Source: Dipteris shenzhenensis (taxonomy: Eukaryota). From it: DNA of 64,000 nt. Of the stretch, positions 6,440 to 35,013 are shown in pieces; within the stretch, counting starts at the first letter, position 1; every line of letters begins with the position of its first letter. The notes beneath the pieces are model-generated. The model saw only the letters and a program-made list of their open reading frames with translations. It did not search any database and had not been told where the DNA came from. The DNA is taken from assembly GCA_047967505.1 (NCBI GenBank), contig CM106538.1. One strand, written 5' to 3'. The position numbers and the translations under genes were made by a program.

Positions 6440-6840
6440 TTGGGGGATGGTGGCTTGGTTGACAGAGGGAGGACACGCGTTTCAGATTGATGAGATCTCC
6501 CTAGCCTACCGGATACAGGGTTAGAGCATCCAGAGGATTGCACTCCACGAGACAGTCCCTCCTGACAGCCTAGCTCCTCCTCCTCCTAGGGAGGACAATG
6601 TTTGGGAGGTGGTAGCCAGCATCACGGCTTGGAACATTTGGGTGGCTCATTGTAGTCTTGTGATGGGTGAGCACCCGGTTCCACCCTCACCTACCCTAGT
6701 TGCTATCTGGTAGGATATCATTTACACTCTACGGTCCACCTGGGAGCGTGGGACTCCAGGCTCCAGGGCGACTATCGAGAGGCGTGCTTGTTTCTGCAAG
6801 GCTTGGCCTGCAGGTGTTTTCTACATCTTCACTCCGCGAG
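6440..6840 (+). mobile_element. Old LINE ORF2 C-terminal fragment related to family A
   Basis: Translates to WEVVASITAWNIWVAHC...PTLVAIW*DIIYTL, which resembles WEIIASIAAWHIWRSRC...HTLASIWTDIVHTL. Confidence 0.65.
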
Positions 6841-7210
6841 TGAATCTGTGCCCCCTTCATTAAACCTGCAACCCTAACCGGCTGGAAGGGAACCTCCTAA
6901 AGGATATCATCAGAAGACATATGTAGCCTCCCTCCGATCTAAACATTAAGAACCAGGGCATCCTCATGAGCATCCCACAAAACAATAACCTCTCATTTTA
7001 TAGAAAGAGAGAGAGGGTGGCCTAAATGATAGGCACCTCTCCTACATCAAAGGAGATAACTCCTAAATCAGTGGCACCTCCTCAAGAGGCAACCTTGTAC
7101 TACATCATCACTTGTGTCATGGTCTAGATACCTCATAGCACTAATTCTGCTTCACACAATATCACACACACACACACACACACGCGCACACACACACACA
7201 CACCCACCTA

Positions 7211-7540
7211 TTTTTTTTAAAGTGAAATCTTATATTTATGTGTGGGAAACCTCAAAAGTGGTAAAAACCCACCAATAAGTGTAAGGACAAAATTTACAAG
7301 TAAAACCTCAGAGCAAAAGTCATGAGGCAGTCAAGTAAAAAGTTACATATCAAGCTGGAGGAGGATCAAACACAGCATCCTCCAACTTCAAATCGTTGCT
7401 CTATAAAAACTGATGGAGTGATGTGCCCTTGTGATTCTTCTTGATATAGGCTGATACCTGAAATTTCTAAATCACAGGGTCAAAAACCTGTTGTAACATG
7501 GGATGAAAAGATTCCAGTAAAAAAGGTACTTTTGCATGCT
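7211..7540 (-). mobile_element. ORF1-only retroelement, copy 1 (5'-truncated)
   Basis: T-run at 7211-7218 adjacent to (CA)n at 7163-7204. It shares the 3' UTR (agtgaaatct...cccacca) and ORF end (..FYLTAS*) with copies 2 and 3. Confidence 0.8.
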
Positions 7541-7559
7541 ACTACACACACATACACAC

Positions 7560-9320
7560 TTTTTTTTTTTTAGTGAAATCTTTTATTTTTGTGTGGGATA
7601 CCGCAAAAAAGAGGTAAAAACCCACCAATAAGTACAAATAAAAAATTTACAAGTAAAGCCTTAGAGCAAAAGTCATGAGGCAGCCAAGTAAAAAGTTACA
7701 AGATCAAACTGGAGGAGGATCAAAACAACGTCCTCCAGTTTCAAATTGTTGCTTTGTAAAAATTGATGCAGTGAAGAGACTGCACCATCAATAAAAAGCA
7801 CCTGTTTTTTGCCCTTGTGATTCTTCTTAATATAAGCTAGAAGTCTGAATTTTTGAATCACAGGGTCAAAAACCTGTTGCAACATAGGATGAAAAGACTC
7901 CAGAGAAAAAGAAACCTCTGTATTCCTAAATAGAAAGAGACTCTGGCACAGTCTTCACAGTCATAGGAACGGGATCAATATCTAAACTCTTTGAAGGAGT
8001 ATTGGACGAAAGAGTTGCATGAGATAAATCATGAGTCAGCATGTCAGCTTAGTCGGGATATCAACCTGAGAGAGAGCATGTGAAGCATCCTGTATGATTC
8101 CCTCTGCAAGGGGCACATCCATATCTTGAGGAGAAGAAGGCACATCCATATCTTGACAAGTTGCTCCACCACATCAGTTGAAGAACAGTGGGCATAATAA
8201 AACCCTTTGCCCAGAAAGACAAACGAGGAAATACAATCCGAGCCCACTGCTGCTTCAGCTCACCGACGAAGATGAGTTGTAGAAAGAACTCTGCCCATAA
8301 AGTAGAGACAGACCCCAAACTGTTGAGCTTGTCGAAGACCTAAAACCAGAAGGGCAAAATCCAAAGAACAAACAAAGGGGGAACCCAATGAAGGAACATC
8401 TGTAATAGAGGCTGAACATAACTGGCGCAGAAGATCTAGCTGAAGGGAAGAAGAAGGGCCATCTACGAGATCAAGCTTCGCCGATTTATAAGAGCATGAA
8501 GAAGCCAAAACACCTCGCTTCTGTCGAACAAAGACACGTGCAGGAGGAGACGACGCAGAAGGAGGAGCTGAAACGGAGAAGACAAAAGGAGAATCGGTTG
8601 AAAGACCGGGAGAGGTTGGCTGTTGCAGAGAAAGGACCGGCTATACAAAAGAAATATCCAAAAGCTGTACAGGCAAAGGGTTTCGCACATGGAAAGGCGA
8701 AACAACAGTGTGAAGAGGTACGGATGACCGTACAGCTTGTACGCACAACCGTACAGACTGGATGGACGGTTGTGCAGGTGGTCCAGCATGCAGGCACGGT
8801 ACGGATGAACGCAGAGAAAGAAGCTCAGACGAGGTATAAACACGGTGTTGCAAAACTGGTACGGTAGGTTGCAAGATCTGTACGGAAGACGTACAGGAGG
8901 TCGCAGCTTGGAGTGGCTGGGTAGAGGTAGATTTGCAGAGGGTGTAGGGTCCCATAGAAGAGGGGAGAAAGCTCAAGGAGCCTCTGCTTGCACAAGGCAT
9001 CTGATAATATGTACGAGACTGTACGGGAAAGGCAGGGTTATATAGAGATGTAAAGGTGCTGAAAGTACTGCGTTGTACGGAGGACTGACAGATAAATGTA
9101 CGTACGTACATAAAAGTACAAGGTGAGGGAACTGTACGGGCCTGCGCGTAAGTCTGCACAGGGATTGCGACCCTCTCGTGGCAGCTGGTACGGCCATTCA
9201 GAAGATCCATACGGCGACCGTACGGGCGTACGGACAGAGGGGGAGAGGCCTGCGAGGATATGTTGGCACCTTCGTTCACGACCTCACGCTCTTAGCTAGC
9301 ACCTTCGCTCACCTTCTTTT
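7560..9320 (-). mobile_element. ORF1-only retroelement, copy 2 (internally deleted, GTAC-rich leader)
   Basis: T-run at 7560-7571 after acacacatacacac. ORF remnants SFVFLGKGFYYAHC and QVFDPVIQKFRLLAYIKKNHKGKK...FYLAAS* are present. The 5' end abuts a CT/CA microsatellite. Confidence 0.8.
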
Positions 9321-9451
9321 CTCTCTCACACACACACACACATGCACTCACTTCCTTTTTTTTTTTTGGCCCCCCCCCCCCCCCCCCCCCCCCACACACA
9401 CACCCTCTCTCTCTCTCTCACACACACACCTCTCACACACACACACACACA
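9320..9451. repeat. Compound microsatellite (CT/CA, poly-T, poly-C)
   Basis: Read directly from the sequence. Confidence 0.9.
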
Positions 9452-10799
9452 TTTTTTGGTAAAATCCAGTGTATTTATATTATCATAAATTTACAAGATG
9501 GGAAGTCTCCCACTCACTGACATGAGACTCGAAAAAAGAGCCCAATGGAAAAACTCAAAAACAGGTAGAGAACACTTCAAGGCTAGTGGCATCCAAGTCC
9601 CTTGCAGCAAAACTGTCATATAAGGATTGCTTGAGGGACATTCTGAAGAAAATATATGCCTGAGGAAACTGTTGACCCATCCTAGAATGCAGTCTCTGCG
9701 TCCAAATGGTCCATAGTACCCAAAAGCGAGTCCAGTAAAAGAAGAGGAGGAATGGAGACATCTGAGATGAGAGGCATCCAAACATCCAGAAGAGTTTCCC
9801 AAATCTGATAGAGGGAAACCGAAGCTGCAGCAAATGAGAAACATGAGTGATCAGTATGCGGGATTGTGGGCAAGACCATAATAGGTGAGGAACTGTCTCG
9901 TACTGTTGAGAGCAACGGGGACAGGAAGGGGAAGCAATGCGGCGTGCTGCCAATTTAACCCCAATGGAAAAGGCTCCCACAATACATCTCCAAAAGAAAA
10001 GCCTCTGTTTCAATGGCAATTTGGCTTTCCAGATTTTCATGAGTCGTGATTGCCACCAAGATAAAGGCCTATCCAAATTCCAAAGAGTGTTGGCATGCTT
10101 GTCAATCCATGGCGGTGGAAGAAGAAATCTGTAGACCTTCGAAGAGGTCAGATTGTGCATTGAGAGCGTATGGGTAGAAGGAGGTAAAGAAGTCAAATTC
10201 CAGTCCATTAATCTGTCTTGTGCAAACAGTGGAGGAACTGGAACAAAAGGCTGCAGCATAGCTGAAAGTGTTCTCCAAATGGACCTATGATGCAGGCCCA
10301 AGGAGAATGTCCTGCAAGCTTGTGGAAATGAAAGCATACAACCTTGTTGATCCACAACATCACCAACAAATCTGACGCCCAATTTCATGAGATTGTATGC
10401 TTTAATAGGTGCCTGTAGAGCGAGAGGCAATTCAAACACCTTACTCCAATGGATGCTTTCCAATTGAAAAGAATTACCATGATGAGAAGAAGCACCTGTC
10501 CATTTTGCATATGAGAGAATTCTCTTCCAATCATGAATAAAAGCAGAAGAAACAGGGCAACCAGGAATTTTCCCTTGAAATGTGGACATGACTGCTTCCC
10601 AGTGATCTGTAATCCAATGCCCATATGCATGAGTCGCCATGTTTCCACACATAGCTGCTAACATAATAGCCCATGGCTGTTTTTGCTGAAGAAAATCAGC
10701 AATCATAGTGCTCTTTCGTGCCAACATATGAACCTGGAGATTGAGAATATTCAGCCCCCCATGAGTCTTAGGTGAACAAATGGACTGCATAGGTAGTAG

Positions 10800-10800
<1 letters not shown>
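9452..10800 (-). mobile_element. 5'-truncated LINE family B ORF2 C-terminus (zf-RVT) with poly(A)
   Basis: The open frame 9555-10800 has GGLNILNL and CPRC..YETVPHLLWSC and is homologous to 27489-28895. T-run at 9452-9457. (CA)n lies on both sides. Confidence 0.9.

Positions 10801-10802
<2 letters not shown>

Positions 10803-10837
<35 letters not shown>
10803..10837. repeat. (CA)n microsatellite between two retroelements
   Basis: Pure CA run. Confidence 0.97.
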
Positions 10838-10839
<2 letters not shown>

Positions 10840-10918
10840 TTTTAGTGAAATCTTATATTTCTCTGTGGGAAACTTCAGAAGAGGTGAAAACCCACCATGA
10901 AGTACAAAAGTAAAAAGA

Positions 10919-12208
10919 TTACAAGTAGGCCTTTGGGAAAAACCAGGAGGCTAAGTGAAAGCTAAAACAATAAAAAAGTTTACAAGTCACTAGGGGAGGC
11001 ATCCAGTAGAATATCCTCCACAGTGAGATTGTTTGCTGTTGTAAAGGAACCACATCACCATCAATAAAATGAAGGTGTTTTTTACCCCTGTGATTCTTTT
11101 TAAGATAAGCAGGCACCCAAAATTTTTGAATCATAGGGTCAAAAACTTGTCGCAACCAAGGATGGAAAGTATCCAGGGAAAATGGAGAGGCAGGAGCCAA
11201 ATCTAACAATGGTGTAGCATTTGTATTCAGACCAGCAGTAGCATCCATAGTATCAACCCCAGTCTGAGTATGTTTGGCTTGCAAATCCACATCTGTTGCC
11301 ACTACACAATCATGAACAATATCCAAAGGAGAAAGATCCACTTGCATTTCAATAGAGTGCGTCTCATCAACCGGTAAGGCCTGCTGAGAGTCAATTCCAA
11401 CCAAGGAGGATTGTTGAGCTGAAGAGGACTCTTGAGAATCGGAAGCATTAACACCAGAAGATTGCCATGTTTCAAGCATAAGTGTATCCGGCATTGATAG
11501 AGCCTGAAACGGATTTGACAAAGGAACCGAAAGAGACGATGAAATGATTTCTTTTCCTGGGGGGTGTACCCTTCTCCATTCTTTTCTTGTTGTGCTCAAC
11601 TGTTGCATCTTATCGAAATGGAGAGGAGTAGTAGTCTGAGGAACAACATGAGCAGATTGACATGATTGTGAAGGGCAGCTCTGAGCAAAATGACCAATCT
11701 GTCTACACTTGTAGCACACATTTGGAAAGGAAGAAAAAGATAAGAGAATGCAAAGATGATCATCCAAACCATAATCAATATCCAAACATGAAGGTACGGG
11801 TTGCTCCATATCCCACAAAATACAAATTTGGATATCTCTGCTGAAGACCAAAAAATCCTGCTTCAGAAGATGCAGTACTCTCCCCAAAAGAGCTGCAATA
11901 GAGGATATGTGCAGGAGGAGAGGTACTGGCAAGGCTTTTAAGGTGACCCATGGAAGGTAATAATGAATGAGATTCTGAGCCGGGTCGAAAAGTGGGTCCC
12001 AAGGCATGACATAAGCAAAATATCCACCTCCGTGGACACCTGCCATATTAACTAGCTGATAAACTGTCTCCACATCAACACAATCAGCATAATAAAAACC
12101 CCTGCATAGAAAAACAAAGGAGTTGAATTTATTTGATCCAACGGCTGCTCTGTCGACCATGCACATAGCATAGGTGTTGTCATAACTTGTCCCATAAAGT
12201 AAAGACAA
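10919..12208 (-). CDS. L1-type ORF1-like protein (DUF4283-like region plus CCHC knuckle), frameshifted near both ends
   Basis: RGFYY, VMPWDPLFDP, PWVTLKALP and CYKCRQIGHFAQSCP motifs are typical of plant L1 ORF1. Confidence 0.8.
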   Translation of the reverse strand: MSLLYGTSYDNTYAMCMVDRAAVGSNKFNSFVFLCRGFYYADCVDVETVYQLVNMAGVHGGGYFAYVMPWDPLFDPAQNLIHYYLPWVTLKALPVPLLLHISSIAALLGRVLHLLKQDFLVFSRDIQICILWDMEQPVPSCLDIDYGLDDHLCILLSFSSFPNVCYKCRQIGHFAQSCPSQSCQSAHVVPQTTTPLHFDKMQQLSTTRKEWRRVHPPGKEIISSSLSVPLSNPFQALSMPDTLMLETWQSSGVNASDSQESSSAQQSSLVGIDSQQALPVDETHSIEMQVDLSPLDIVHDCVVATDVDLQAKHTQTGVDTMDATAGLNTNATPLLDLAPASPFSLDTFHPWLRQVFDPMIQKFWVPAYLKKNHRGKKHLHFIDGDVVPLQQQTISLWRIFYWMPPLVTCKLFYCFSFHLASWFFPKAYL

Positions 12209-12778
12209 ATACCGAGTTGTTGTCCCTCAGAAAGACTCTGCAGAAAGGATTTAGAGGAAAGAACCCGGCGCATGGAAGTTGGCAATCAAAGATGGGAGGT
12301 CAACTCAAACACTAAAAAGTTCAGCCCATTGCTTTGAAGAGGCAAGAAAGAGGGGGACCTGAGGAGGTAGAGAAGAGAAGGCAGCTGGTTAGAAGGCAGT
12401 AGAGGCTAGAGCAACAGGGAGACCTGTGGGTTGGAATGCAGCAGGTTAGCAGCTAGGAGGGAGAGAGGGGCCAGCAAGGAGGGATGAGGGAGGTGTGGGG
12501 CTGGAGGTAGAGGGAAGGTCAGTAGAGAAAGGAACTAGCTAGCAGAGAGTGTTGTGGTGAGTAGGGAAGGAGTTAGCTGCAGCAAGGAGCTGTGGGAAGC
12601 AGAGAAGAGGAGTTAGCAGTAGCAAGGAGCTGTGGGTATGCAGAAGAAGGCATGTGGACAGCAGGGGAGCAGGCGGATCAATTAGTGGATGCAGGAAGAC
12701 AGTAGGACTCAGGAGAGCAAGTAGGGGAGTTAGAGGCTGCAGGGAGGCAGCATAAAAGTAGGCAGAGAAGGTTAGCAG

Positions 12779-15345
12779 TGAAGATGCAAGACATGGAATG
12801 GAATGGAAAGGAAAAGCAAGACTAGGAAAGCATAATGGAAATGAAAGTACTTACATGATCAAGAAAGGCATGAGGCTTGATGAAAATGACAATGAAAGTA
12901 CACCTTTATAGGATAGGCACATACACAAATGTATATGGGGTAAGTCCCATAGTGACACATGGCACTCTAGGATATAAAGTAGTATAGTACTACTCTAGAA
13001 CACACTAAAAGTCACTCAAATTGACTCCATTTCCTAACACCCTCCCATGGAGGAAAGGTGAGGGACTATTGGAATGGAACCAAGAATAGAACATGACAAT
13101 GATGGTCATCAAAATTGTGCATGCTGGTCTAGAACTAGACATGGCTCCCACACAATGTCAGAGGCAAGTGAGCATGGCTCAGAGGCTAGTGAGCATAACA
13201 TAGAAATCTCATCTAGCATGGCTCAGAGGCTCATCATGCATGGATGCATGATCAACTTAGAGGTCTAGGAGACCAATGCACCAACAAATAGACCTATCAA
13301 AGCCAAAAACACATGGCTCCCATAGTACATCCCCACCTGGCTCCAAAGACTAATGAAGAGCATGGAGCCACATACCAAAAATATAAAAGAAGTACATCAT
13401 TTTAGGAGGACTATCCAAGGCAGAGGACCTTTAGACTGAACACACATGATTTATTGCATTCATTTTTGGGAAACACCCCCAGGGTAGAGTACCCCAATAT
13501 ATTATGCTTTAGAAAGCAAAATCATGATCTCCGTCATTCTTTAAATGCGGGAGACAGATTGTAAGAGCATGATCGTGTGTCGGCGGGTCATCTTCGTCTG
13601 CATGATCACTAGTGGTGGATGCCACCTAACTGGCATGATCCTTCGATTGTTGTTGAGCAAGCTTTCGGTAACACCTGTCCTCCGTATGACCGAGCTTGTT
13701 GAAGTGCACTTGAATGGCTTGAATGTCTTTCCTCGTGCTGGTGGAGTCGATGGCCTAGGTCTCCATTTGCTGGTGGAGGCAAGTGCTTGTGTAGTATCCG
13801 CTGAATAGGATGGAGATTCTTTGTTGCACGATTCTTTTCAAGCAAAAGAGACACCATATCTTCGAATGTAGTCAATGCAATGCGAAGTACTTCAAGGGCA
13901 TTCTCAAATCCCTTCCATACATGTCATCAAGACAGCCATTTTGTCCTCGTTATCCGGGCAACACTTCAAATTGGAGAGTTGTTGAACTAAAGATTGAATT
14001 TTTGCTATATGCGCACTTCAGACTCTTCCATTTTTCAGAAATACCTTGGAGTTGGTGATCTTGTTACCGAATATATTCTCAAGGCGTGCCCAAATCTCCT
14101 TTGCCTTGGACTTGAAGTCGATGTGATGAATCAATGAATCATCTAGGCAAAGCTCGATGATTGTGATGGCCCTCGAATTGTGTTGGTTCCAAATCTTTCG
14201 TGTTGGAAGCTCCGTTGATGCCTCAAGTGCTTCATCATCTTTCATGGCATCCTAAACATTCTCCTTCATGATAAGGAGTTGCACTTTTGTTTGCCATGTG
14301 GGAAATCCGTCCCCCTTGAATTTGTCCACAAGGAGAGAGTTGGTGGAAAGCGAACCCATAAAGTTGGCAGCTAGGAGAGAGAAGAGTGATGGATAGAATG
14401 AGGGGCACAAGCGAGTTGAGGGAGAAATGGAGGGCTGAGGGAGAAATGGAGGGCTGAGGAAGAAATGGCGGGCAAAAGGAAAAAAAAATGACGGTCTGTA
14501 GGCGAGGAATAAATGGCGGCAGAATACGGGCATCAACTTGCGGACAGCAGCTCCAAGAGAATGTCGGACAGAAGGAGCAAATGGTGAGCTGGAGTAGAGG
14601 TCAAAGATGAAGAGGATGGACAGCTCCACGTTGAGGTGGCTGCATCATGCTTGGGCTGTCAAATCATTGAGCTCGAGAACAAAATTCGCACTTAGAAACA
14701 AATTTCGTCACTTCTTGCAGGGGCTGTAACTTTTCATAGAAAACTCAGATTGCAATGATGTCAAAACGAAATTTGTAGTACTCAAGGTCCTCTACAACTT
14801 TGCTGACGACACAAAGCCATGATTTTGCTTCTAGATCCGGATAGAAGCATCACATCGTCCATAGTTCACAAAAAGATGTAGCTGAAGGAAGGAGAAGAGA
14901 GGTGGCAGATCATGGCGTGAAGAAGAGAACTCTAGATGAAATTGGAGAAGCCATTCCTTCAAGGGGAATGAGGGAGAGAGGCTTTAATGTCCTCAATTTC
15001 TTACCTCAACCTCTTGGAAGATAGTCTAGCTCTGATACCATATGAAGATGCAAGACATGGAATGGAATGGAAAGAAAAAGCAAGCCTAGAAAAGCAAAAT
15101 GGAAATGAAATAATGCGAGAAAGAAATATACAACTAAGCAAAGTACTTACATGATCAAGAAAGGCATGAGGCTTGATGAAAATGACAATGAAAGTACAAT
15201 GCCTTTATAGGATAGAGCCACACACTCTAAGTGTCAAATGTATATGGAATAAGTCCCATAGTGACACATGGCACTCTAGGATATAAAGTAGTATAGTACT
15301 ATAGAACACACTAAAAGTCACTCAAATTGGCTCCATTTCCTAACA
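12779..15345 (-). mobile_element. Internally deleted Ty1/Copia LTR retrotransposon
   Basis: TG...CA LTRs at 12779-13039 and 15043-15345. PBS TGGTATCAGAGC is reverse-complemented at 15029-15040, and a PPT lies next to 13040. TSD AGCAG/AGTAG. A gag remnant (KFKGDGFPTWQTKV..., AKEIWARLENIF) is present, with no intact pol. Confidence 0.9.
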
Positions 15346-15968
15346 AGTAGCTGTGCAATGCAGCAGGGAGCTGGGGGAAAGGGAGAGAGAGGCCTGGAAG
15401 GGGAGTGCAAGGAAGTGAGGGGGAGCAAGGCTGTAGCTCTTGGTTTTTTTTTTGGGGGGGCTTTCTATTCATGGAGGGATTCCAAAAATTAGTGGAGGTC
15501 CAGGTTTTGAGCTCCTTGTTTTTGCCCACGTTCCCTATCTAGCACGTGCATTTCACAGATCCTCTCCATAAATCTACTCATGCTTGCATCTATTGAGTTT
15601 ACTTAAGAAAAGTGACTACTATATTATAATTATGGAATTGATGTGATTTTGTATGCCTCCTATGATAGGAACACAAAAATATATATTGGGGGAGCCACTT
15701 TTTATAGAAGAAGCTACCTTCACTGGATGACTGTTAAGCTTGCAATTTGTTGTATAAGGTTCTTGCATGTTTGAAACACTGAAAATCATAGATAGGCATT
15801 TTGTTTTTCTTTTCTTTTTGCTCATAACCTTGTAATAGTTCTTTTAGCACTCTGGTGTACAATTATACTTGGATATGTATTGTCTTTATCTATCACTCAC
15901 AAGAGCCCAATTCACCTACTGTGATTTTAAATGGATTTACTATTGACCTTTGAATTATACCTTTGTAG

Positions 15969-22204: not shown

Positions 22205-23352
22205 TCCTGCCTTGAAGAGCATCTCTGCCACCACACCAAACCTCTTGCCAATAACTAAAAGAAGCCAGTGATAAACTGAGGGAAGACCAGGGAACCTGAT
22301 GAAAACAGAAACTCCCTGCTTGTCCTCTTCAACTGGGTCAAATCCCAGTTGAAAAGGAAACAAAAAGATCCTCCTGTAGCCTAGAAGTAGAAACCCGGCC
22401 TGTAGCAGGTCTCTCGTGACATGCGGGGAATCTAGGCACACCTGAAAGAAACCCCGTCCCAACAAACGAACATCCTTGAGGTGGGGGGCGAGGTCCTGAG
22501 GAAGCGTCGACAACATCCAATCTCTAGCTTGTGACTTGGAGGGGTGTGAGCCATGAATGCGTGCGAAGAGAGTCGTGGAACACTCATGTTCGAAATCCTT
22601 TTGCAACTGCTGTAGCTCGTCTTTTGAAAAAGTGACAGTTCTCGCGGCCGGTGTGAGCGGAGACGGATTGACTGAATGGGAACCCATTCGTCAATCGAGG
22701 TGTGTAGGCCGATTCAAACACAAAATAAAAACTCCGTCTGCTTTCCTGAATCCCAGGAGACCCCTATAGGAGAATAGGGGTAATCCAGATGAAGGAGAGG
22801 GTGAAGAAGAAGGGAGAGAGAAGAAAAAAAACCAGGGGGAGACAGCGGGGAGGAGGGAAGAGGAGGGGAGGATAGGGGAGAGGAGTGGAGGATAGGGGGA
22901 GAAGAGGAGTAGAGGAGAGGGGAAGGAGAAGGGAGGAAAAGCAGCAGCACGCTGCAGCGGGGGGAAAGCAGCAGCAGGAGCGGGGGGGGAGCAGCAGGCT
23001 GCAGTGGGGGGGGGAGCAGCAGCAGGGGCGGGGGGGGGAGGAGGCTGCAGCGCAGGGGGGGGACGCTGCAGCGCGGGGGAAGGGGCAGTGCGGGGGAGAG
23101 GGCAGGTAGGAGGGGGCAGCGAGGAGGGAAGGGAGGGGGCAGGCAGGAGGGAGCAGGAGGAGCAGCAGGGAGCGGGGAGAGAGGCAGCAGGGAGCGGGGA
23201 GAGGAGCAGCAGCAGGAGGGAAGGGAGGGGGCAGCGAAGGGGAGCGGGAGGAGCAGCAGGGAGCGGGGGAGCAGCAGTGAGCGGGGAGAGCAGCAGGGAC
23301 CGAGGAGAGCAGCGGTGAGGAGGGGAACTGGAGGAGCGGGGAGCAGCAGCAG
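22205..23352 (-). mobile_element. LINE family A 5' portion (C-rich leader plus ORF1 N-terminus), 3' part lost
   Basis: ORF 22181-22687 (TFSKDELQQL..GSHPSKSQARDWML) matches ORF1 at 35014. The leader resembles 34300-34980. Confidence 0.9.
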
Positions 23353-26345
23353 TTCTAAATTCTTTGGAAGAGCAGCCTTTATCTGTAAAGGCTCTTTGTC
23401 TTGCTCTAGTCTCCCATTTAGCCAGTTTCCTGTGATCATTTAGTTTAAGACAATGTCTAGCCTGGCATAGTGTTGTTTGCTCATGCATGGACAACGAACG
23501 AAGATAGCTGAGTTCAGTGAGGTCTTGACAAGTGAATTTGGCCTGAGCAATGGTTTCCCTCAGAGTCTTCATGTAAGACTTGCCATAAGCTCTAATCACA
23601 ACTTGCATTTTGGAAACAAAAGAATCCCAGGCATCACAATATGAATATGGTTGCGAGAAGACAGAGAATGAGATGCTTCAGTAACCATGGCCTTGAAAGC
23701 AGCCTGTTGCAAATAGCTATTGTTTACGATCAGATGTCACCTTTGTGGCAATCTCTCATTTGACATAGCATGAAAGGATAGCTGCAACCATAGAGGTGCA
23801 TGATCTGAATGCACTAAGGCATAGTCAATCCACATTTTGCATGTAAAATCCCCATTTTGTTGTGGAGCTACACTATACCATCGATCCAGACGTGCCTGAT
23901 AAGAAGAAATGGCATTATGTTGGAAGGTGTATCCAGGTGACAAAGGCTGCAATTCCTTCCAAAGGTCAACCAAATCCAGATGCATCAGTAATTGGGACCA
24001 TGCATGCCTTTCAGGAGTTAACATATGATCATGTCTGGAGGTATTGTCACCCTGTTGTGGAGCATTATTGAAATCCCCACATATGAAGGCATGATATCTC
24101 CATGGATATTGTTGCATGGCATCCCAAATTGCAGTTCTTTCTCTAGAGGATTGAGGTGCATAAATAGAAGCAAATTCAAACACCTCTCCTCGAATAATGC
24201 ATTGAAGAACAAGCCATCTGCCCTTGTTGTCATTTAAAGCAATAACTGGTTGAAGCTCATGTTTGATCAAAAGGACTACCCCTGAGAAAGAGTGCTCCCC
24301 AGCATAGAAAATATCATAACCACAGTAGTGTCCTGTCTTTCTTGCATAGACGTGTTGGTTGTGTTCTTGTAATGCCACTATGTAAGGCTGAAATCTATTG
24401 ATGTACAGCCACACAGATTTCCATTTCCTATTGTCACACAGCCCCTGGACATTGAGTGTAAAACATTTGATATCAGCAGTCATATTTACAGATATTTATA
24501 GTAATATAACAACTATGTACAGCAGCAAAATTCATGATGTCAGCCCTGCATTTCTATCTCAGGGTCAAGGCCTCTCCCCTCAGAAGAAGTAGCCACCTGA
24601 GGAGTAGACAGCAAAGCAGCAACCTCTTCTTCAGGGAAGAGTGTTCTGCTAGCTGTCACTGCAGGCCATGTGATCCCAATTCCTGTATTGACCTCTGGGG
24701 TGTTTCCACTAGAAGACGCACCATTCCAAGTGCGAGGGGGTGGAAGTCTTTGAGCAGAAATAACTTTTCTTGGACTTTGCCATCCATCAGTTGGAGGTTT
24801 GTGTCCTTTTGTCGAGGGTTGAATAGCAGGAGGTGAATGTGAAAAAACATTCCCATTTGAAACCACTAGAGCTTTGCCTTTATCCTGATTTCCAGAAAAC
24901 TATCTACTATCTTTGTTTTTATTTGCAATGGAGGTAGGAGCATCCTTAGTAGGCATTTGAACCGACAAAGTGGCAGGAGGCATTTTATGCTGATTCATTG
25001 GACACTGTGAAGCCATGTGTCCAAATTTTTTGCACTCAAAACAAGCCCCTGCAAATAATCCCCATTTCAGTTTATAAAAAGCACTTCCCATGTCCACATT
25101 ATTCACCGTGACTGAATAAGAGTCCGGTGTGGGATTTTTAGTATCCCAGAGAATGCAAAATCGATTCGAGTTGCCATTAGGCCGTGGTGGGCAGACCACT
25201 TTGCCTAAAGATGCTGCAATTTTAGGCAAGAGTGAGGCCATGCATTGTGAGAAGTCTACAACTTCAACCCAGACCGGGCATCTGTGTCGGATTAAAGCGT
25301 GAAAATCTCTTGTGGGAGACCATGGCAATACATGCACCATTTGCTGCCCAAAATAGAGAGGCGAATGTTCCAAAAGCATTTGTCTGTGTATCTCATCCAC
25401 CGTGATAACCTCAAAAAACCCCCTGGCTGCATAGTGTACTTTGCAAACAAATGAGCCAGCCACTGTGCGAGTCAACCAGTTGCCTATCTTTGTGGCAGGT
25501 GGCATCTGGCCTGGAAAAAATAATATGACTGTAGTTTTAGCATATTCTTTGACTGGATCCACAATTTCATCTACTTCAACCATGAGGCCAACTGAAGGAA
25601 CCAAGTCTTTCCACTCTTTCCTTGTGTCTGCAAATCCTTCATGCATGACATCATAGACCAGTTGGGCCTCAAGAGTATCATGTACCGGGTCATGCTGACC
25701 CTCAGCTTGCTTTTGCTTCTTGCAATGAACCGAACGCTCCTTTTGAAACGTTTTTTCATAGGAATATTTAGCCATAGCTTTGTAAAAAGTGGAACTCAGA
25801 AAGGAGGTACTTGTAAAAGGGTAGTGGAGTAAAAAAACCAGTCCCAAAAAAATGCCCACAGGAAGCCCACAAAGAAGAGAAAAAGAGTATATTTGTAAAG
25901 AGATAGAAGGGAAAGAGGGATGTAGAGGTCGAGAGAAGATAATAACAGTTTTGTAGAGGAAGAAGAGAGAAAAACCAGTAAAAAAACCCAGATGAACTAT
26001 ATTTCAGAGGAAAAAGGAAGATTTTGGCGATGGGAAAGGTGCAGCAGACCCAAAGACTGAAGAGGAGAAAAAACAGGAGCAAAAGCCTTCAAAATCAGCA
26101 CGTGGATGTAGTCCGGAAGCAAAACCCTGCGTGGAAACGATCCAGGAACCGGAGATGGACTGGGAGCAGCAAAACTGTAGCAAGCGGAAATGTCCGTACA
26201 GGCCGTACACCTGTACGGAATCCGTACGGAGCTCGGACGGGCTGTACGGCTGGTGATAAATGCTCCAGATCACTGGTTTTTGGGCTCTGATGCAGCGCAG
26301 CTGGGAGCTGAGGCTCACGGGCTGGTTGCTTGAGGCTCTAGAGCT
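23353..26345 (-). mobile_element. LINE family B 5' portion: leader, ORF1 and APE endonuclease; RT missing
   Basis: ORF1 at 24540-25859 has RGFFEV, VLPWSP and CFECKKFGHMASQCP, with a premature stop at 24900. The EN at 23737-24483 has TLNVQGL, LQEH, IYAP, GDFN, RLDRW and SDHAP. The EN is homologous to 29761-30525. The 5' end abuts CT/CA repeats. Confidence 0.9.
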
Positions 26346-26575: not shown

Positions 26576-27390
26576 TTTTTTTTTTTTGGTAATATCCAGT
26601 GCAATATATTTATATGCTCATAAATTTACATGATGGGAGGTCTCCGAAATGGAGAGTATCTTAAAGAACAGAAACATAAAAAGAAAAGCTCTATGCAAGA
26701 AGCATCCATATCACCCTCATGGCAGGCATCATATAAGGATTGCTGCAATGAGGCTCGGAAAGATTCATATGACTTGTGAATCTGCCGACCCAAGTATGCC
26801 AAATTATGCTCACTCCAGATTGTCCAAAGAGCCCAATATCTCACCCAAGAGAGAAATAGTGAGTATTGAGACAAAGACCTCATAAATCTGCCAAAGAGCC
26901 AGAAATGTTTCCCAAATCTGTGACTCGGGAAACGGAGCCGAAGATAATCTGAAATTCTCCTGAGGAGGATCCTAGAACATGGGCAGTGCCAAAGCAAATG
27001 AAGAACAGTCTCTGAAGGAGCCTGACATCTTAAACATGTGGATGGTGCAATGCGACGTTTAGCAAGTGTGACCCCCACTGACAATGTCCTTGTCATACAT
27101 CTCCAAAGAAAAAGTCTTTGTTTCAATGGCATTTTACACTTCCATAACATCCCGAGATTCTTCCGCCACCATGAGAGGGGCTTCCTTATATGCCACGGGG
27201 AATTAGCATATTGTTGAATCCATGGAGCAGGTTGAAGAAGCCTGTAGGCTTTGATGGAGGTTAAGGCAGGAAGAGGAACAGGATGAGTGCATGTAGCAGA
27301 GGGTTGCAATTGCCAATCCGTAAGCCTGTCTGTGTTAGCCATTGGAGGAACAGGTAAAAAAGAATGTAATAAATCAGCAATTTTCTTCCA
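26576..27390 (-). mobile_element. 5'-truncated LINE family B 3' end
   Basis: T-run at 26576-26587 after (CA)n. zf-RVT ORF at 26626-27342. Highly similar but not identical to 27398-28210. Confidence 0.92.
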
Positions 27391-27397
27391 TACACAC

Positions 27398-30300
27398 TTT
27401 TTTTTTTTGGGTAATATCTAGTGCATATATTTATATGATCATAAATTTACATGATGGGAGGTCTTTAAAATGGAGAGTATCCCAAAGTTCAGAAGCATAA
27501 AAAGAAAAGCTGTATGCAAGAAGCATCCATATCACCCTCATGGCAGGCATCATACAAGGATTGCCACAATGAGGCTCGGAAAGATTCATATGACTTGTGA
27601 ATCTGCCGACCCAAGTATGCCAAATTATGCTCACTCCAGATTGTCCAAAGAGCCCAATATCGCACCCAAGAGAGAAATAGTGAGTATTGAGACAAAGACT
27701 TCATAAATCTGCCAAAGAGCCAGAAATGTTTCCCAAATCTATGACTCGGGAAACGGATCCGAAGATAATCTGAAATTGTCCTGAGGAGGATCTTAGTACA
27801 CGGGCAGTGCCAAAGCAAATGAATAACAGTCTCTGAAGGAGCCTGACATCTTAAACATGTGGATGATGCAATGCGACGTTTAGCAAGTGTGACCTCCACT
27901 GACAATGTACCTGTCATACATCTCCAAAGAAAAAGTCTTTGTTTCAATGGCATTTTACACTTCCATAACATCGTGAGATTCTTCCGCCACCATGAGAGGG
28001 GCTTCCTTATATGCCACAAAGAAATAGCATATTGCTGAATCCATGGAGCAGGGTGAAGAAGCCTATAGGCTTTGATGGAGGTTAAGGTAGGAAGAGGAAC
28101 AGGATGAGTGCATGTAGCAGAGGGTTGCAATTGCCAATCCGTAAGCCTGTCAGTGTCAGCCACAGGAGGAATAGGTAGAAAAGGATGTAATAAATCAGCA
28201 ATTTTCTTCCATATAGACATATGATGCATTCCCAATGCATAGGAAGCAGTGGCTTGAGGAAAAGATAAGACATATCCCCGATCATCTACCACATCATGTA
28301 TGTATCTAATTCCCAATTTCATGAGATTGTAGGCCTGAACAGGTTCCTGTAAAGCTAGCGGAATTGCAAAAATGGCACTCCAATGAATACTTTCTTTCCT
28401 CATTGAGTTTGTCCCCGAGCAACTATCAGGAGCCCATGTGACCTCAGAAAGTACTTGTTTCCAGTCAAGTATCAGAGCAGTAGAGAAAGGACAGCTAGGT
28501 ATCTCCCCTACAAATCTGCCAATGACAACCTCCCAATGATCAATAGTCCAATGACCATAAGCACAAGTCCTCATGTTGACACACATGGATGCTAGCATAC
28601 AAGTCCATGGCTGTTGTTGGCGGAAAAAAGTATGCAGCATAGTCGCCTTCCTTGCAAGCACATGATATCTTATATTGAGGACATTAAGTCCACCATGCAT
28701 CCTAGGAGAGCATACCATTTCCATCTTCATCAGTCTCAATGCTTTCACAGCAGTTTTTGCCCTCCATAACATCTCCATAGCTTGAGACATGAAGGCGGAA
28801 ATATCCCTGGAGGACCAATGTATCAAAGGCAAATAGAACTGGACATAGGACATTACAATGGACTGTACTATTCTGAGCCTGACATGAAGAGGCAAAGTAG
28901 AAATCGTCCAGTATTATAGTTTATGTTGAAGCCTTTGGAAGATCCATTTTAGCTGTTGCTTCCTGGTGATATGCCATCCTATGGGATATCCCAAATGCCT
29001 GACTACATCTTTGGAATGCACCACCTGACCTAGCCAAAGAATAGAATGCCAATCACATTGTGTCAGGGGAAGTAATTTAGATTTGTCAAAATTGACATGC
29101 AATCCATCTGCCAAACCATACAATGAAAGAGTGGTCATAAGCATGTGAACTTCCCGGGGAGAATTCTTTGGCATAAAGAAGGAATCATCAGCATATGCTT
29201 GTGCCAAAAAAGATGCAGCCCCAGGGATTTTAAGACCAGTCATCTGTCCTGTGTTTGTAAGATGATCAAGATACATCAAAAGGGGATGAGTCGCAATGGC
29301 ATAGAAGAGAGCACTAAGAGGGCAGCCCTGCCTAACTGATCGACCCAATGTCCATGACTGAGACAGATGACACCCAAGAATGCACTGAGAAGTAGAGTTA
29401 GAATAAAGCCAGTAAATTGCATTTGCTATCTTGGGACCAAAGCCTAACTTTGTCATGATTTGAGAGATAAAATCCCATTGAACAGTATCAAATGCCTTAG
29501 CAATATCCACCTGCAATATAAGGACATCTTGATGCAAATACTTAGCATATTCAATTGCAGTCAAGGCATTGGAAATATTATCATGGATTTGTCTTCGCGG
29601 CACAAATCCATACTGATGAGGATGAAGTCCCGCATCCAGTATCCTGTGAAGCCTATGCACAATCATTTTGGTAATGAGTTTGTAAACTACAGGCATCAAA
29701 GTAATAGGCCTCCAATCTGACATATTGTCACATAGATGTTTTTAGACATGAGTTTTTCTTTCAAGTAGCATGCAGACCCTGGAAAAAGGCTTTTGATGAG
29801 CAGCCCTTATCCATGAGGGGCTTCATTCTTGCCCTAATCTGCCATTTGTGCAATTTCCTTTGATCATTAACAGTCAATTTAATCCGAGCATGTGAAAGGG
29901 AATCATTTTCTGATTCAGAGAGAGGCCTTAAATGTGAAAATTCAGTCAATTGTTGTGCTGTCCTTTTTGCCCATTTAACCTCATTCCTCCATTTAGTCAT
30001 ATGCCAGTTTCCATACTCCCTAATGACATTCTGTATACGAGAGACAAAACTGTCCCAGGCATAATCCATGTCCTCCTGGGCATGCAAAGGCAAGGGATGA
30101 ATTGCAAGTCTTATCATTTGCTGGAAATAGTGATGTCGGAAATAAACCTGATTAACATGCAATAATCTACTGGAAAGGGGTGGCAAATCATCCAGTGGCA
30201 TACCAAGGTGCAAATTCATCCATAATGGGGCATGATCTGACAAGCCCAATGAGAAATCTATAAGGAGATGAGGGCTAAAATCTGCATATTGTTGTGGGTA

Positions 30301-30525
30301 AAACAAATACCATCTGTGAAGCCTTGCCCATTGTGTAGTAAGTGCATTATGATGAAAAGTATATCCAGGCACTGATCCTTGGAGAAGCAGCCATAAATCT
30401 TCAGCCTGCACAGAAAGAAGCATGCTATCCCATTTCTGCCTTTCCAATAATAGCATATGAGATCTTGAAGTGGTGTTATCTCTTGGCAGAGGGGAATTAT
30501 CAAAATCTCCACAGATGAATGCACA
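27398..30525 (-). mobile_element. 5'-truncated LINE family B ORF2 (partial EN, RT, zf-RVT) with poly(A)
   Basis: Motifs GDFDN, SDHAP, WRPITL, DIAKAFDTV, RQGCPLS, YADD and GGLNVL. An internal deletion lies near 29725-29760. T-run at 27398-27408. The 5' junction falls in (CA)n. Confidence 0.93.
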
Positions 30526-30726
30526 CTTACACACACACACACACATATACATATATATAAATATAGATATACAATATACATATACATACACATACAAATA
30601 CACATATACATGTACATGTACATACATTGATGTATGCATGTATGCATGCATGTATGTATGTATGTATGTATGTATGTATGCATGTATGTATATATGTATA
30701 ATGCATATGTAAACTGATGGAGTCTC

Positions 30727-30763
<37 letters not shown>

Positions 30764-31046
30764 TGAGCAAGCGAGGAGAGGTGGATGTAGAGGGTGGAAT
30801 GCAGGGTGGAGCAGGGGGTCCAGAAGGGTTCAGCGAGAGGCTGTATGCCATCTGTACAATGGTGCAAGTACACACACATATATACATATATATAAGTATA
30901 GATATACATATACATACACATACAAATACACATATACATGTACATGTACATACATGTATGCATGCATGCATGCATGTATGTATGTATGTATGTATGTATG
31001 CATGTATGTATATATGTATAATACATATGTAAACTGATGGAGTCTC

Positions 31047-31085
<39 letters not shown>

Positions 31086-32377: not shown

Positions 32378-33029
32378 GTAAGACACTTTTGATACTGTCT
32401 TAAAAAATATTTACTTGAAAATCAGTGGGAAAGAAAGTCAAGATGTCTACATATATGTACTTAAACGATCGTGTGCTGTAGTAGGCCAGATTCACAAACC
32501 GAGACCACCTGCATTATTCCTTGAAGGATGGGTTCGCAGCTTTTGGTCTCCCAAGGTCTAGTAGTCACGACCATCCGTTTCTTAGAAATGGTTGTATTGT
32601 GTTCATTTTTGAAAAGTGTGAGATGGTTACAGAAGTGGTCCACAAAGGAACCTGGACGATTAGGAATCAACCACTATCAGCTCAGCTGTGTGAACCTTCT
32701 TTTAGTCCATACTGTCCTCCTCCGTCCAAAGCCCCTATCTGGGTGAGTTCCCTGACCTTCCGCTTTTTCTTTTTCCTTAAATTGAGACCCTTTGTTCTCC
32801 GCTGGGCCAATTCCTTGGAGTAGAAACAGAGAAGTTTATCAACCCGAGAGGCAACCCCCAAGCTTGTGTCCTGATGTAATTCAAAAGGACATCTCTTGTG
32901 CCCCTGGCCTTGTCCTTTTTTTTTTTTTTTTTTCATGAAAAAGACTTCTATTAAGTAAGAACAAAAACCCGCGAGAGCAAGCTCAAAGCGGAATACATCA
33001 TGAAATCATGAGGATAATAAAAAACCCCC

Positions 33030-34208: not shown

Positions 34209-34299
34209 ATCATCTGTGTCGCCCCACCACTTGCACGTTGTTCACCAGAGGGGGAGTCAAGGACGTGACATTGAAACTGCACAGTGGCACTTTGAGCCT

Positions 34300-34960
34300 G
34301 AGCTGCTGCTCCTCCCCGTTCCCCTGCTGCTCCCCCTCCCTCAGCCCGTCTCTCTCCCCCCTCAGCCTGTCCCTAGCCCCTCCCTGCTGCTCCCCCCCCT
34401 CCCCCCCTGCTGCTCCGCCCCCTCCCCCTGCCTGTCCCTCGCTCCCTCCCTCTGTTCCCTGCTTCCGCCCCCTCCCCCCTGCTGTCCCGCCCCCTCTCCC
34501 TGCCTCCGTCCCCTCCCCCCTGCTGCTCCGCCCCCTCTCCCTGCCTCCGCCCCTCCCCCCTGCTGCTCCCCCCTGCCCCCTGCTGTCCCGCTCCCTCTCC
34601 CTGCCCCCGTCCCCTCCCCCCTGCTGCTCCGCCCCCTCTCCCTGCCTCCGCCCCCTCCCCCCTACTGCTCCCCCTCTCCCCCTGCCTCCGCCCCTTCCCC
34701 CCTGCTGCTCTGCTCCCTGCCTCCGCCCCCTCCCCCTTGCTGTCCCGCCCCCTCCCTTGCTGTCCCGCCCCCTCCCTGCTTGCTCTCCCGCCCCCTCTCT
34801 TCCTCTCACTCCTCCCTTTCTTCTCCTCTCCTTTCCCCTCCCTCCCTCTCAGCTTGCCCCTCTCCCCTCTCAGCCCCAGCCCCTCTCCTCCTTCCCTCCC
34901 CTTCCCCCCTGCTTCCTCCTAGCCTCCTTTCCCCTCCCTTGCCCCTCGCAGCTTTTTTGG
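34300..34960 (+). repeat. C-rich degenerate tandem repeat (CCCCCTGCTGCT-like) forming the LINE A leader
   Basis: Almost devoid of A. A homologous tract lies at 22770-23350 on the opposite strand. Confidence 0.9.
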
Positions 34961-35013
34961 AACGGAAGGAGCTTTTTTTTCTCTTCGAGTCGGCCTCCTC
35001 ACCTTGATTGGCG

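Follow-up and report, generated by a model that had tools for sequence, protein, structure and literature searches.

Does a plant genome harbour a retroelement family that has kept the open reading frame 1 (ORF1) of an L1 retrotransposon, lost ORF2 and still gone on inserting itself? The question is raised by positions 10838 to 12300 of a 64,000-nucleotide (nt) stretch of Dipteris shenzhenensis DNA (GenBank assembly GCA_047967505.1, contig CM106538.1), hereafter the window, in which a sequence-only reading had described a half-L1 with ORF1, a 3' end and poly(A). We compared this element, here called copy 3, with two diverged relatives in the window (copies 1 and 2), with the L1 families around them and with external proteins. 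Our favoured answer, to which we give a probability of about one half, is that the three copies, all on the minus strand, belong to a HAL1-like (half-L1), ORF1-only, non-autonomous derivative of L1 that is mobilised in trans by L1s specific for (TG)n microsatellites. The evidence lies in the encoded protein, in the absence of ORF2 sequence from the copies, in the constraint on both the protein and the 3' untranslated region (UTR), and in the target that the copies share with complete L1s nearby.

Copy 3 is the most complete of the three, and its parts, in window coordinates, are as follows.

10838..12273, minus strand: copy 3 as a whole, from the ORF1 ATG (12271-12273, frame A) to the A-run
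11732..12273, minus strand: RRM-like / DUF4283 region of ORF1, two alpha/beta modules (Pfam, tblastn, phmmer, AlphaFold2, Foldseek)
11669..11722, minus strand: CCHC zinc knuckle, residues 169-186, CYKCRQIGHFAQSC (Pfam zf-CCHC)
11183..11653, minus strand: linker rich in S, T, Q and D, predicted to be disordered (AlphaFold2 pLDDT <50, residues 196-362), with the motif 'NPFQAL'
10994..11182, minus strand: C-terminal domain (CTD) of no known family, 'FSLDTFHPWLRQVFDPMIQKFWVPAYLKKNHRGKKHLHFIDG...' (tblastn, dN/dS, AlphaFold2)
10844..10993, minus strand: 3' UTR of copy 3, delimited by alignments, the frame being still open to 10919
10838..10843, minus strand: terminal A-run of 6 nt
10803..10837, no strand assigned: (TG)17 as read on the element strand, which is both the 3' flank of copy 3 and the 5' flank of a family B2 fragment
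12274..12773, minus strand: CT-rich sequence preceding ORF1, which may be the 5' UTR of copy 3 and has no defined 5' boundary

The protein of copy 3 and its C-terminal domain

The main frame of copy 3 (10919-12226, minus strand) is open for 435 codons, a length that none of 1000 dinucleotide shuffles of 10838-12300 reached; the longest open run in the shuffles had a mean of 104 amino acids (aa) and a maximum of 281. The N-terminus, 'MRRVLSS...CLYFMGQVMTTPMLCAWS', is encoded in frame A (12052-12285) and the remainder in the main frame. A single frameshift, which falls at about codon 40 of the complete ORF1 between '...LCAWS' and 'RAAVGS', separates the two and was placed by alignment to two external protein fragments (P0005 and P0006) and to copy 2. 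A second frameshift, at the C-terminal end, was considered and rejected, since alignment to the fragments P0154 and P0090 shows that the frame is kept, with a deletion of four codons.

The frame had been read as an L1-type ORF1 with a DUF4283-like region and a CCHC knuckle, and this assignment holds. Among Pfam families, zf-CCHC matches the copy 3 ORF at residues 169-186 with 25 bits (E 1.8e-5), above its cut-off of 20.8, and DUF4283 matches it with 19.2 bits (E 1.1e-3), below its cut-off of 27.2. The assignment goes beyond this weak DUF4283 match because of three further comparisons. By tblastn, residues 39-185 of copy 3 are 27% identical (E 2e-11) to the ORF1 of the window's complete L1 at 24999-25433, which is physically linked to an L1 ORF2, an Exo_endo_phos ORF following it at 23737-24495. 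An exhaustive phmmer search of 1.84 billion representative proteins gave 305 matches at E<=1e-3, including P0003 (E 6e-22, 35% identity), which itself scores DUF4283 at E 1.5e-13. Finally, an AlphaFold2 model built from 33 sequences, with pLDDT of 80-94 over residues 20-170, was matched by Foldseek to tandem RRMs (two matches at E<=1e-3, probability 1.0; IMP3 RRM12 at E 8.7e-4 and HuR RRM1-2 at TMt 0.48), this being a comparison made with a model and not with a solved structure. The nearest Atlas clusters are of DUF4283 or zf-CCHC, two of them assigned to Streptophyta, at scores of 0.87-0.88, which we treat as a lead only. The combination of DUF4283 and zf-CCHC is, in the cited passage, the usual make-up of plant L1 ORF1p (PMC5203782).

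Relatives outside the window come as 11 short protein fragments of 35-59% identity that between them span the N-terminus, the knuckle, the linker and the CTD. The 1.84-billion-protein library represents the close relatives by short, broken fragments only, from contigs of 0.7-2.4 kb, and by no full-length gene model, and a word-indexed protein search with the 435-aa ORF among proteins of 239-762 aa yielded no match at E<=1e-3 in 4935 candidates. The comparisons support an L1 ORF1p of plant type, extended by a C-terminal segment that is truly coding.

The knuckle is followed by a linker of about 170 aa, which partly aligns with P0009 (37% over 139 columns), and then by that segment, the CTD of about 65 aa. 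The CTD has tblastn matches in copies 1 and 2 and is present in four of the external fragments (P0009, P0049, P0090 and P0154), at 41-55% identity, with the conserved pattern F.LEDMHPMLQQVFD..IQKF.LPAYVKK.HKGQK.L.F.DG....L..FL.QQG.KLEDVVFMSSPP. These four fragments are also what a CTD profile finds among 596 candidate proteins of 51-277 aa; among proteins of 278-2000 aa it finds none of 8000 scored candidates at E<=0.01, which is weak evidence. The conserved part closes with '...LEDVVF(M/D)(S)PP' in copy 1 and in the relatives, and the stop codon lies 0-25 codons further. P0154 runs beyond the CTD into sequence that resembles the 3' UTR of copy 3 read in frame. The ending 'FYLAAS*' that had been given for the segment is specific to copy 2, where it is an out-of-frame tail following a 1-nt deletion near the end.

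Across the three pairs of copies, dN/dS of the CTD is 0.12-0.22, measured on 33-49 codons, and the distinctive segment noticed earlier is thereby confirmed as coding. AlphaFold2 predicts a helix, three strands and a helix, with a core pLDDT of about 85-87 both alone and in the full model; the CTD-alone model was built from six sequences and has a mean pLDDT of 65. No Pfam family matches the CTD at E<=0.1, its model matches no PDB fold at E<=1e-3, and there is no usable Atlas match. When compared by hhalign with the ORF2 C-termini of the window's L1 families B and C, it gives probabilities of 0.1-0.2, and among metagenome contigs the CTD pattern gave 68 pattern matches, none of which was confirmed. 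The CTD is a real coding domain without known family.

Three copies, one constrained layout and one target

The two other copies lie downstream of copy 3 on the element strand.

7560..9326, minus strand: copy 2, of the same architecture as copy 3, with an internal deletion; A-run 7560-7571, then 3' UTR, CTD 7715-7921, ORF1 N-terminal remnants 8149-8433
7211..~7549, minus strand: copy 1, 5'-truncated inside the linker/CTD; A-run 7211-7218, CTD remnant 7356-7532
7163..7207, no strand assigned: (TG)n, the 3' flank of copy 1

Five ORF2 queries (endonuclease, reverse transcriptase and C-terminal part), which were taken from the window's L1s and find each other readily, gave no match at E<=10 in 7150-9350 or 10842-12800. 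The frame of copy 3 is unbroken from the knuckle to the CTD, copies 2 and 3 each run from ORF1 through CTD, stop and UTR to the A-run, and all three copies align colinearly from the CTD to the A-run, with only small indels. The earlier statement that neither endonuclease nor reverse transcriptase is encoded is thus upheld for the spans of these copies, as is the claim that one 3' end recurs in three diverged copies: by blastn, the 3' end of copy 3, roughly its final 360 nt, is 72.3% identical to that of copy 2 over 386 nt (E 7e-48, at 7544-7909) and 67.5% identical to that of copy 1 over 394 nt (E 2e-29, at 7173-7526).

Each copy carries its own damage. In copy 2, about 620 nt are missing, comprising the second RRM-like module, the knuckle and the linker, and there is an in-frame stop at the site of the frameshift of copy 3. 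Copy 1, the one that had been recognised as 5'-truncated, has two stops and a 33-nt deletion. The hallmarks of target-primed reverse transcription are present, namely the A-runs (6 nt in copy 3, 12 in copy 2 and 8 in copy 1, each then followed by (TG)n), the 5' truncation of copy 1, and (TG)n tracts on either side of copies 1 and 2; a target-site duplication is unreadable inside a microsatellite. For copy 2 the two tracts are at 7540-7559 and 9327-9342, and copy 1 starts directly after the (TG)n that follows copy 2. The flanks of the copies share no homology beyond the microsatellite, and what intervenes between the copies is a family B fragment and an unrelated 5' region of 1 kb. Because A-run and (TG)n flank are separate for each copy and the 5' ends differ, we regard them as separate retrotransposition events and not as plain tandem duplicates, the possibility that the sequence-only reading had raised against itself.

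The 5' region of copy 2 measures about 980 nt, and between 8650 and 9250 it is rich in GTACGG/CCGTAC words, with six direct families and four inverted pairs. Copies 2 and 3 bear unrelated 5' regions, because this word-rich sequence has no match upstream of copy 3; the two regions show no mutual similarity and match nothing else in the window except a long terminal repeat (LTR).

Between copies 2 and 3, 108 aligned codons (two N-terminal pieces plus the CTD) differ at a proportion of 0.65 of synonymous sites (pS) and 0.23 of nonsynonymous sites (pN), giving an omega of 0.18 (Fisher p 2e-10), a value biased downwards, as are those of the CTD, since the segments compared were chosen by protein similarity; they are also short (33-108 codons). 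The 3' UTR is also constrained. Copies 2 and 3 differ there at 36 of 130 sites, compared with 46 of 71 synonymous sites (p 5e-7), and copies 1 and 2 at 14 of 130 sites, compared with about 10 of 20 synonymous sites (p 1e-4). Overall, UTR identity between copies is 68-89%, above that of synonymous sites. An invariant GUGGG...CCCAC hairpin lies about 22 nt before the A-run; in the predicted UTR structure, 3 of 31 pairs changed on both sides among the three sequences, which is too little for inference. A scan of 6800-13200 with Rfam and for tRNA returned only SCARNA7 at 24 bits (cut-off 65) and no tRNA. The UTR of the sequence-only reading stands, but the length of about 110 nt given there gives way to 75-135 nt, set by the stop used in each copy.

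Two conclusions about age follow. The ORF2-less layout predates the deep divergence of the copies, because the junction from the CTD to the A-run is colinear in all three and pS has reached 0.65. Given saturated synonymous change, low pN and low UTR divergence, the copies represent long-separated lineages that already lacked ORF2 and preserved both protein and 3' UTR.

The target of these insertions is best seen beside that of the window's complete L1s, for which the following rows are needed.

9452-10802, 26576-27390, 27398-31044 and 22691-26003, minus strand: family B
9452..10802, minus strand: family B2, a 5'-truncated fragment of an autonomous-type L1, with the ORF2 C-terminal part including zf-RVT, a 3' UTR and A6

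Family B is a complete L1, with an ORF1 of DUF4283 and CCHC, an APE-type endonuclease, a reverse transcriptase and zf-RVT. On the element strand, (TG)n follows the 3' end in three of three focal copies and in three of three family B ends (9452, 26576 and 27398), and in neither of the two family C ends (2275-2289 and 32916-32933), so that the common CA target and orientation noted earlier are borne out in six of six ends. Seen from the microsatellites, the window has nine (CA)n loci, of which six adjoin focal or family B ends and a seventh is 13 nt from a T12 run. Since (TG)n is also found on the 5' side of several insertions (copies 1 and 2, the B2 fragment and a short B1 copy), it is the target and no mere tail.

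Protein identity between the sublineages of family B, of which there are at least three, is only 50-52%, and the (TG)n specificity is for that reason old. The family looks like a plant L1 clade that is specific for (TG)n microsatellites and builds head-to-tail arrays; it may belong to L1 proper or be Tx1-like. Its B2 fragment, which sits between two (TG)n tracts, scores zf-RVT at E 6e-11 in Pfam and is 52% identical in amino acids to a B1 copy (27492-28913); we consider B2 a candidate source lineage of the enzyme. The choice of target is, for a long interspersed nuclear element (LINE), a property of its endonuclease. That the focal family, with no endonuclease of its own, inserts into the same unusual target in the same orientation is best accounted for if it uses the family B enzyme in trans.

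How the copies may have arisen

We interpret the locus as three independent insertions of one L1-derived, ORF1-only family in a streptophyte genome. The unit would consist of a 5' UTR (about 1 kb in copy 2), an ORF of about 450 codons, a constrained 3' UTR of 75-135 nt with its hairpin, and a short A-run; its product would begin with RRM-like (DUF4283) modules in tandem, continue through a CCHC knuckle and a disordered linker, and end in a folded CTD that is lineage-specific. In the proposed cycle, the RNA of the element would be bound by its own ORF1p and then reverse-transcribed in trans by the ORF2 protein of local (TG)n-specific L1s, of family B or a relative. The borrowed enzyme would nick the (CA)n strand and prime on the A-run, perhaps aided by read-through (UG)n, an assistance that has been proposed for other target-specific LINEs. 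The short A-runs that pass directly into GTGT suggest such priming by the nicked (CA)n strand. Because the borrowed enzyme would act in this way, every new copy would land in (TG)n in one orientation, and repeated hits would produce head-to-tail arrays.

Of the two inferences drawn in the sequence-only reading, each stands in part. Self-propagation of a non-autonomous family agrees with the ORF2-less ORF1 plus CTD, the separate insertions and the shared target, but the supply of its own ORF1p does not emerge from copies that are all damaged. Borrowing of a family B ORF2p agrees with the shared (TG)n target and orientation, but finds no support in the 3' UTRs, as described below. What the data show is the architecture, the absence of ORF2 from the window's copies, the constraint on protein and UTR while the family diverged, the separateness of the insertions and their common target; propagation from ORF2-less masters, the use of their own ORF1p, the identity of the helper and any role for the CTD are inferred.

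Several points weigh against the HAL1-like interpretation. None of the three window copies has an intact ORF1, and all three are clustered within 5 kb. The absence of ORF2 is observed in both of the copies that reach ORF1, and its scope is thus two local copies. The external fragments are protein only, without DNA or downstream sequence, and the downward bias of omega noted above belongs here as well. When the focal 3' UTR was compared with that of family B, seven of nine local alignments fell within the range of dinucleotide shuffles, and the relation that a LINE and its partner would have at their 3' ends is therefore unsupported; the remaining two alignments rest on a 12-nt AT-rich match. 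A 3' end shared with family B, plausible from the alignments themselves, was for this reason rejected as evidence, though a parent may lie beyond the window. Lastly, the B1 and B2 copies are 5'-truncated or disrupted before ORF1, their ORF1 is absent from the window, and the focal ORF1 could therefore belong to one of them.

This last point leads to the most probable of the rival explanations, one that we nevertheless judge unlikely. Here, the copies would be by-products of an autonomous L1, possibly of B1 or B2 type, that has ORF1 with the CTD as well as ORF2, and whose RNAs were sometimes polyadenylated just after ORF1 and then copied in trans into dead copies. Premature polyadenylation is well known for human L1, and AAUAAA-like, AU-rich words do occur in the last 25 nt. 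Such a parent would account for purifying selection on ORF1 and on the 'UTR', which would then be an inter-ORF spacer, and also for the common (TG)n target and for the deep divergence of the copies, which would stem from different parent sublineages; that both B1 and B2 are broken before ORF1 suits it too. It fits less well with a window that holds three ORF1-only ends and not one copy joining the focal ORF1 to ORF2, or with the only ORF1-ORF2 junction readable in the window, that of B3, which by eye lacks the CTD and leaves only about 55 nt between the two ORFs. It would also require that three lineages saturated at synonymous sites end at one nucleotide, that is, that a leaky site was kept for long despite its cost to the parent, and the search of proteins of 278-2000 aa found no long protein with the CTD (weak evidence, as stated).

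A host gene is the less probable alternative, and we think it improbable: a domesticated DUF4283-CCHC-CTD family would have an ordinary mRNA that is occasionally retrocopied by family B. A host mRNA would not usually leave three retrocopies of diverged origin in 5 kb, each of them in (TG)n, and a 3' UTR conserved above synonymous sites, with its exact 3' end kept, is typical of a template for reverse transcription. The protein-level selection is compatible with a host function, and the Atlas neighbours, lead only as they are, are Streptophyta DUF4283 clusters; DUF4283 and zf-CCHC are indeed common in plant genes, pseudogenes and conifer transcripts according to the passages cited (PMC7935947, PMC5144951), although the library holds, for the close relatives of copy 3, the short broken fragments described above in place of full-length gene models. 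Least probable of all, and very improbable in our view, is local duplication, in which one internally deleted L1 was copied in place and the duplicates decayed. That three copies lie in one 5-kb stretch in one orientation is what it would predict, but their flanks are non-homologous, they have their own A-runs and differing 5' ends, and a family B fragment lies between copies; moreover, their divergence is unlike neutral decay (omega 0.18), copy 3 keeps a 435-codon frame though it is 28-33% different from the others, and external relatives exist.

Returning to the HAL1-like interpretation, a more far-reaching version of it is possible but doubtful. The family would be an ancient plant counterpart of HAL1 and HeT-A, selected since before synonymous change between its sublineages was saturated, and the CTD acquired by its ORF1p would capture the ORF2 protein, or else the ORF1p particles, of an undescribed clade of (TG)n-specific, APE-type plant L1s; the element would be a parasite that brings its own RNA chaperone and docking module and shares the safe-haven target of its helper. 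A docking or multimerising role of the CTD is speculation on our part. As a small folded domain without known family, the CTD is a testable candidate for a role in trans-mobilisation.

Related systems and neighbouring features

ORF1-only LINE derivatives are documented for animals, and HAL1, HeT-A and Ag-Sponge are the examples given in the cited passage (PMC5786205). HAL1 is described in the passages cited as a non-autonomous L1 derivative that encodes ORF1p only, has an A-tail, needs L1 ORF2p in trans and arose repeatedly (PMC5753468, PMC5786205). The focal element is likewise an ORF1-only L1 derivative with an A-run. It differs in its independent origin, in the type of its ORF1p (plant type I, RRM-like/DUF4283 plus CCHC, where HAL1 has Transposase_22), in its extra CTD without known family and in its insertion into (TG)n. 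Since the copy 3 ORF matches zf-CCHC and DUF4283 and has no Pfam match to Transposase_22, the focal element is a functional analogue of mammalian HAL1 and no member of it.

HeT-A (Jockey clade, Drosophila) and Ag-Sponge (CR1 clade, Anopheles) are, in the same passage, LINEs with ORF1/Gag only that need an autonomous partner, and they are listed there with HAL1, their proteins being suggested to multimerise with those of the partner (PMC5786205). Both are animal elements from LINE clades other than that of the focal family, and HeT-A targets telomeres. Compared with plant L1 ORF1p, the N-terminal 190 residues of the focal protein are of the same DUF4283 plus zf-CCHC kind; the 170-aa linker, the conserved CTD, found only in the three window copies and the four short external fragments, and the lack of a downstream ORF2 set it apart.

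LINEs with specific targets offer a further comparison. Togen, a fish lineage related to NeSL, is specific for (TG)n, and Tx1 and R1 are target-specific clades of APE type, as the cited part of the source has it (PMC4640811). The likeness to microsatellite-specific LINEs is in the single microsatellite, the single orientation and the head-to-tail arrays; the difference from Togen, Tx1 and R1 is that the enzyme bearers here, family B, are of plant L1 type with APE, reverse transcriptase and zf-RVT, and that the focal family is enzyme-free. That part of PMC4640811 names no plant LINE specific for (TG)n or for another target, and no plant half-L1 is described in the literature searched by title and passage, a search outside which Repbase and Dfam lie.

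Stand-alone DUF4283/zf-CCHC genes, pseudogenes and transcripts are common in plant annotations, again in the passages cited (PMC7935947, PMC5144951), and because of this the ORF1-only phenomenon in plants may be widespread but unnamed. If our favoured interpretation is true, the half-LINE strategy evolved convergently in plants and can persist for long under selection, and such elements may make up many of the stand-alone 'DUF4283/zinc-knuckle genes' of plant annotations. Microsatellite-targeting L1 lineages in plants are indicated as well.

A few neighbouring features were also noticed. The CT-rich stretch upstream of copy 3 is interrupted at about 12774 by an LTR-type element (12774-15345, minus strand), which was inserted into it; GA/CT-rich sequence resumes at 15354-15422. 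The element has two repeats of about 300 nt (12779-13039 and 15043-15345) that are 81% identical, and an internal part of only about 2 kb with a broken gag-like frame and a zinc knuckle. Just upstream of copy 2 on the element strand, between two (CA)n runs, 9356-9393 reads T12 GG C24 on the plus strand; 'TTTTTTGG' is also the plus-strand reading of family B ends, and the tract may represent a family B insertion with extreme 5' truncation to which a homopolymer was added.

Within family B, the ORF1 of the full-length B3 copy stops at a TAG at about 24900, beyond which an S/T/P-rich, coding-looking frame runs for about 110 codons further (24540-24902, minus strand) and ends, by eye, about 55 nt before the ORF2 ATG; the TAG is probably a recent mutation. 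In the case of B1, similar (ACATAT)n, (ATGT)n and (GA)n blocks at 30528-30760 and 30874-31082, in or just upstream of the endonuclease region, suggest a duplicated compound microsatellite. The family C L1s have long, CT-rich, tandemly repetitive 5' regions with proline/leucine-rich open frames (34250-35007, plus strand; 22700-23440, minus strand), and their 3' ends carry A15-A18 tails outside microsatellites.

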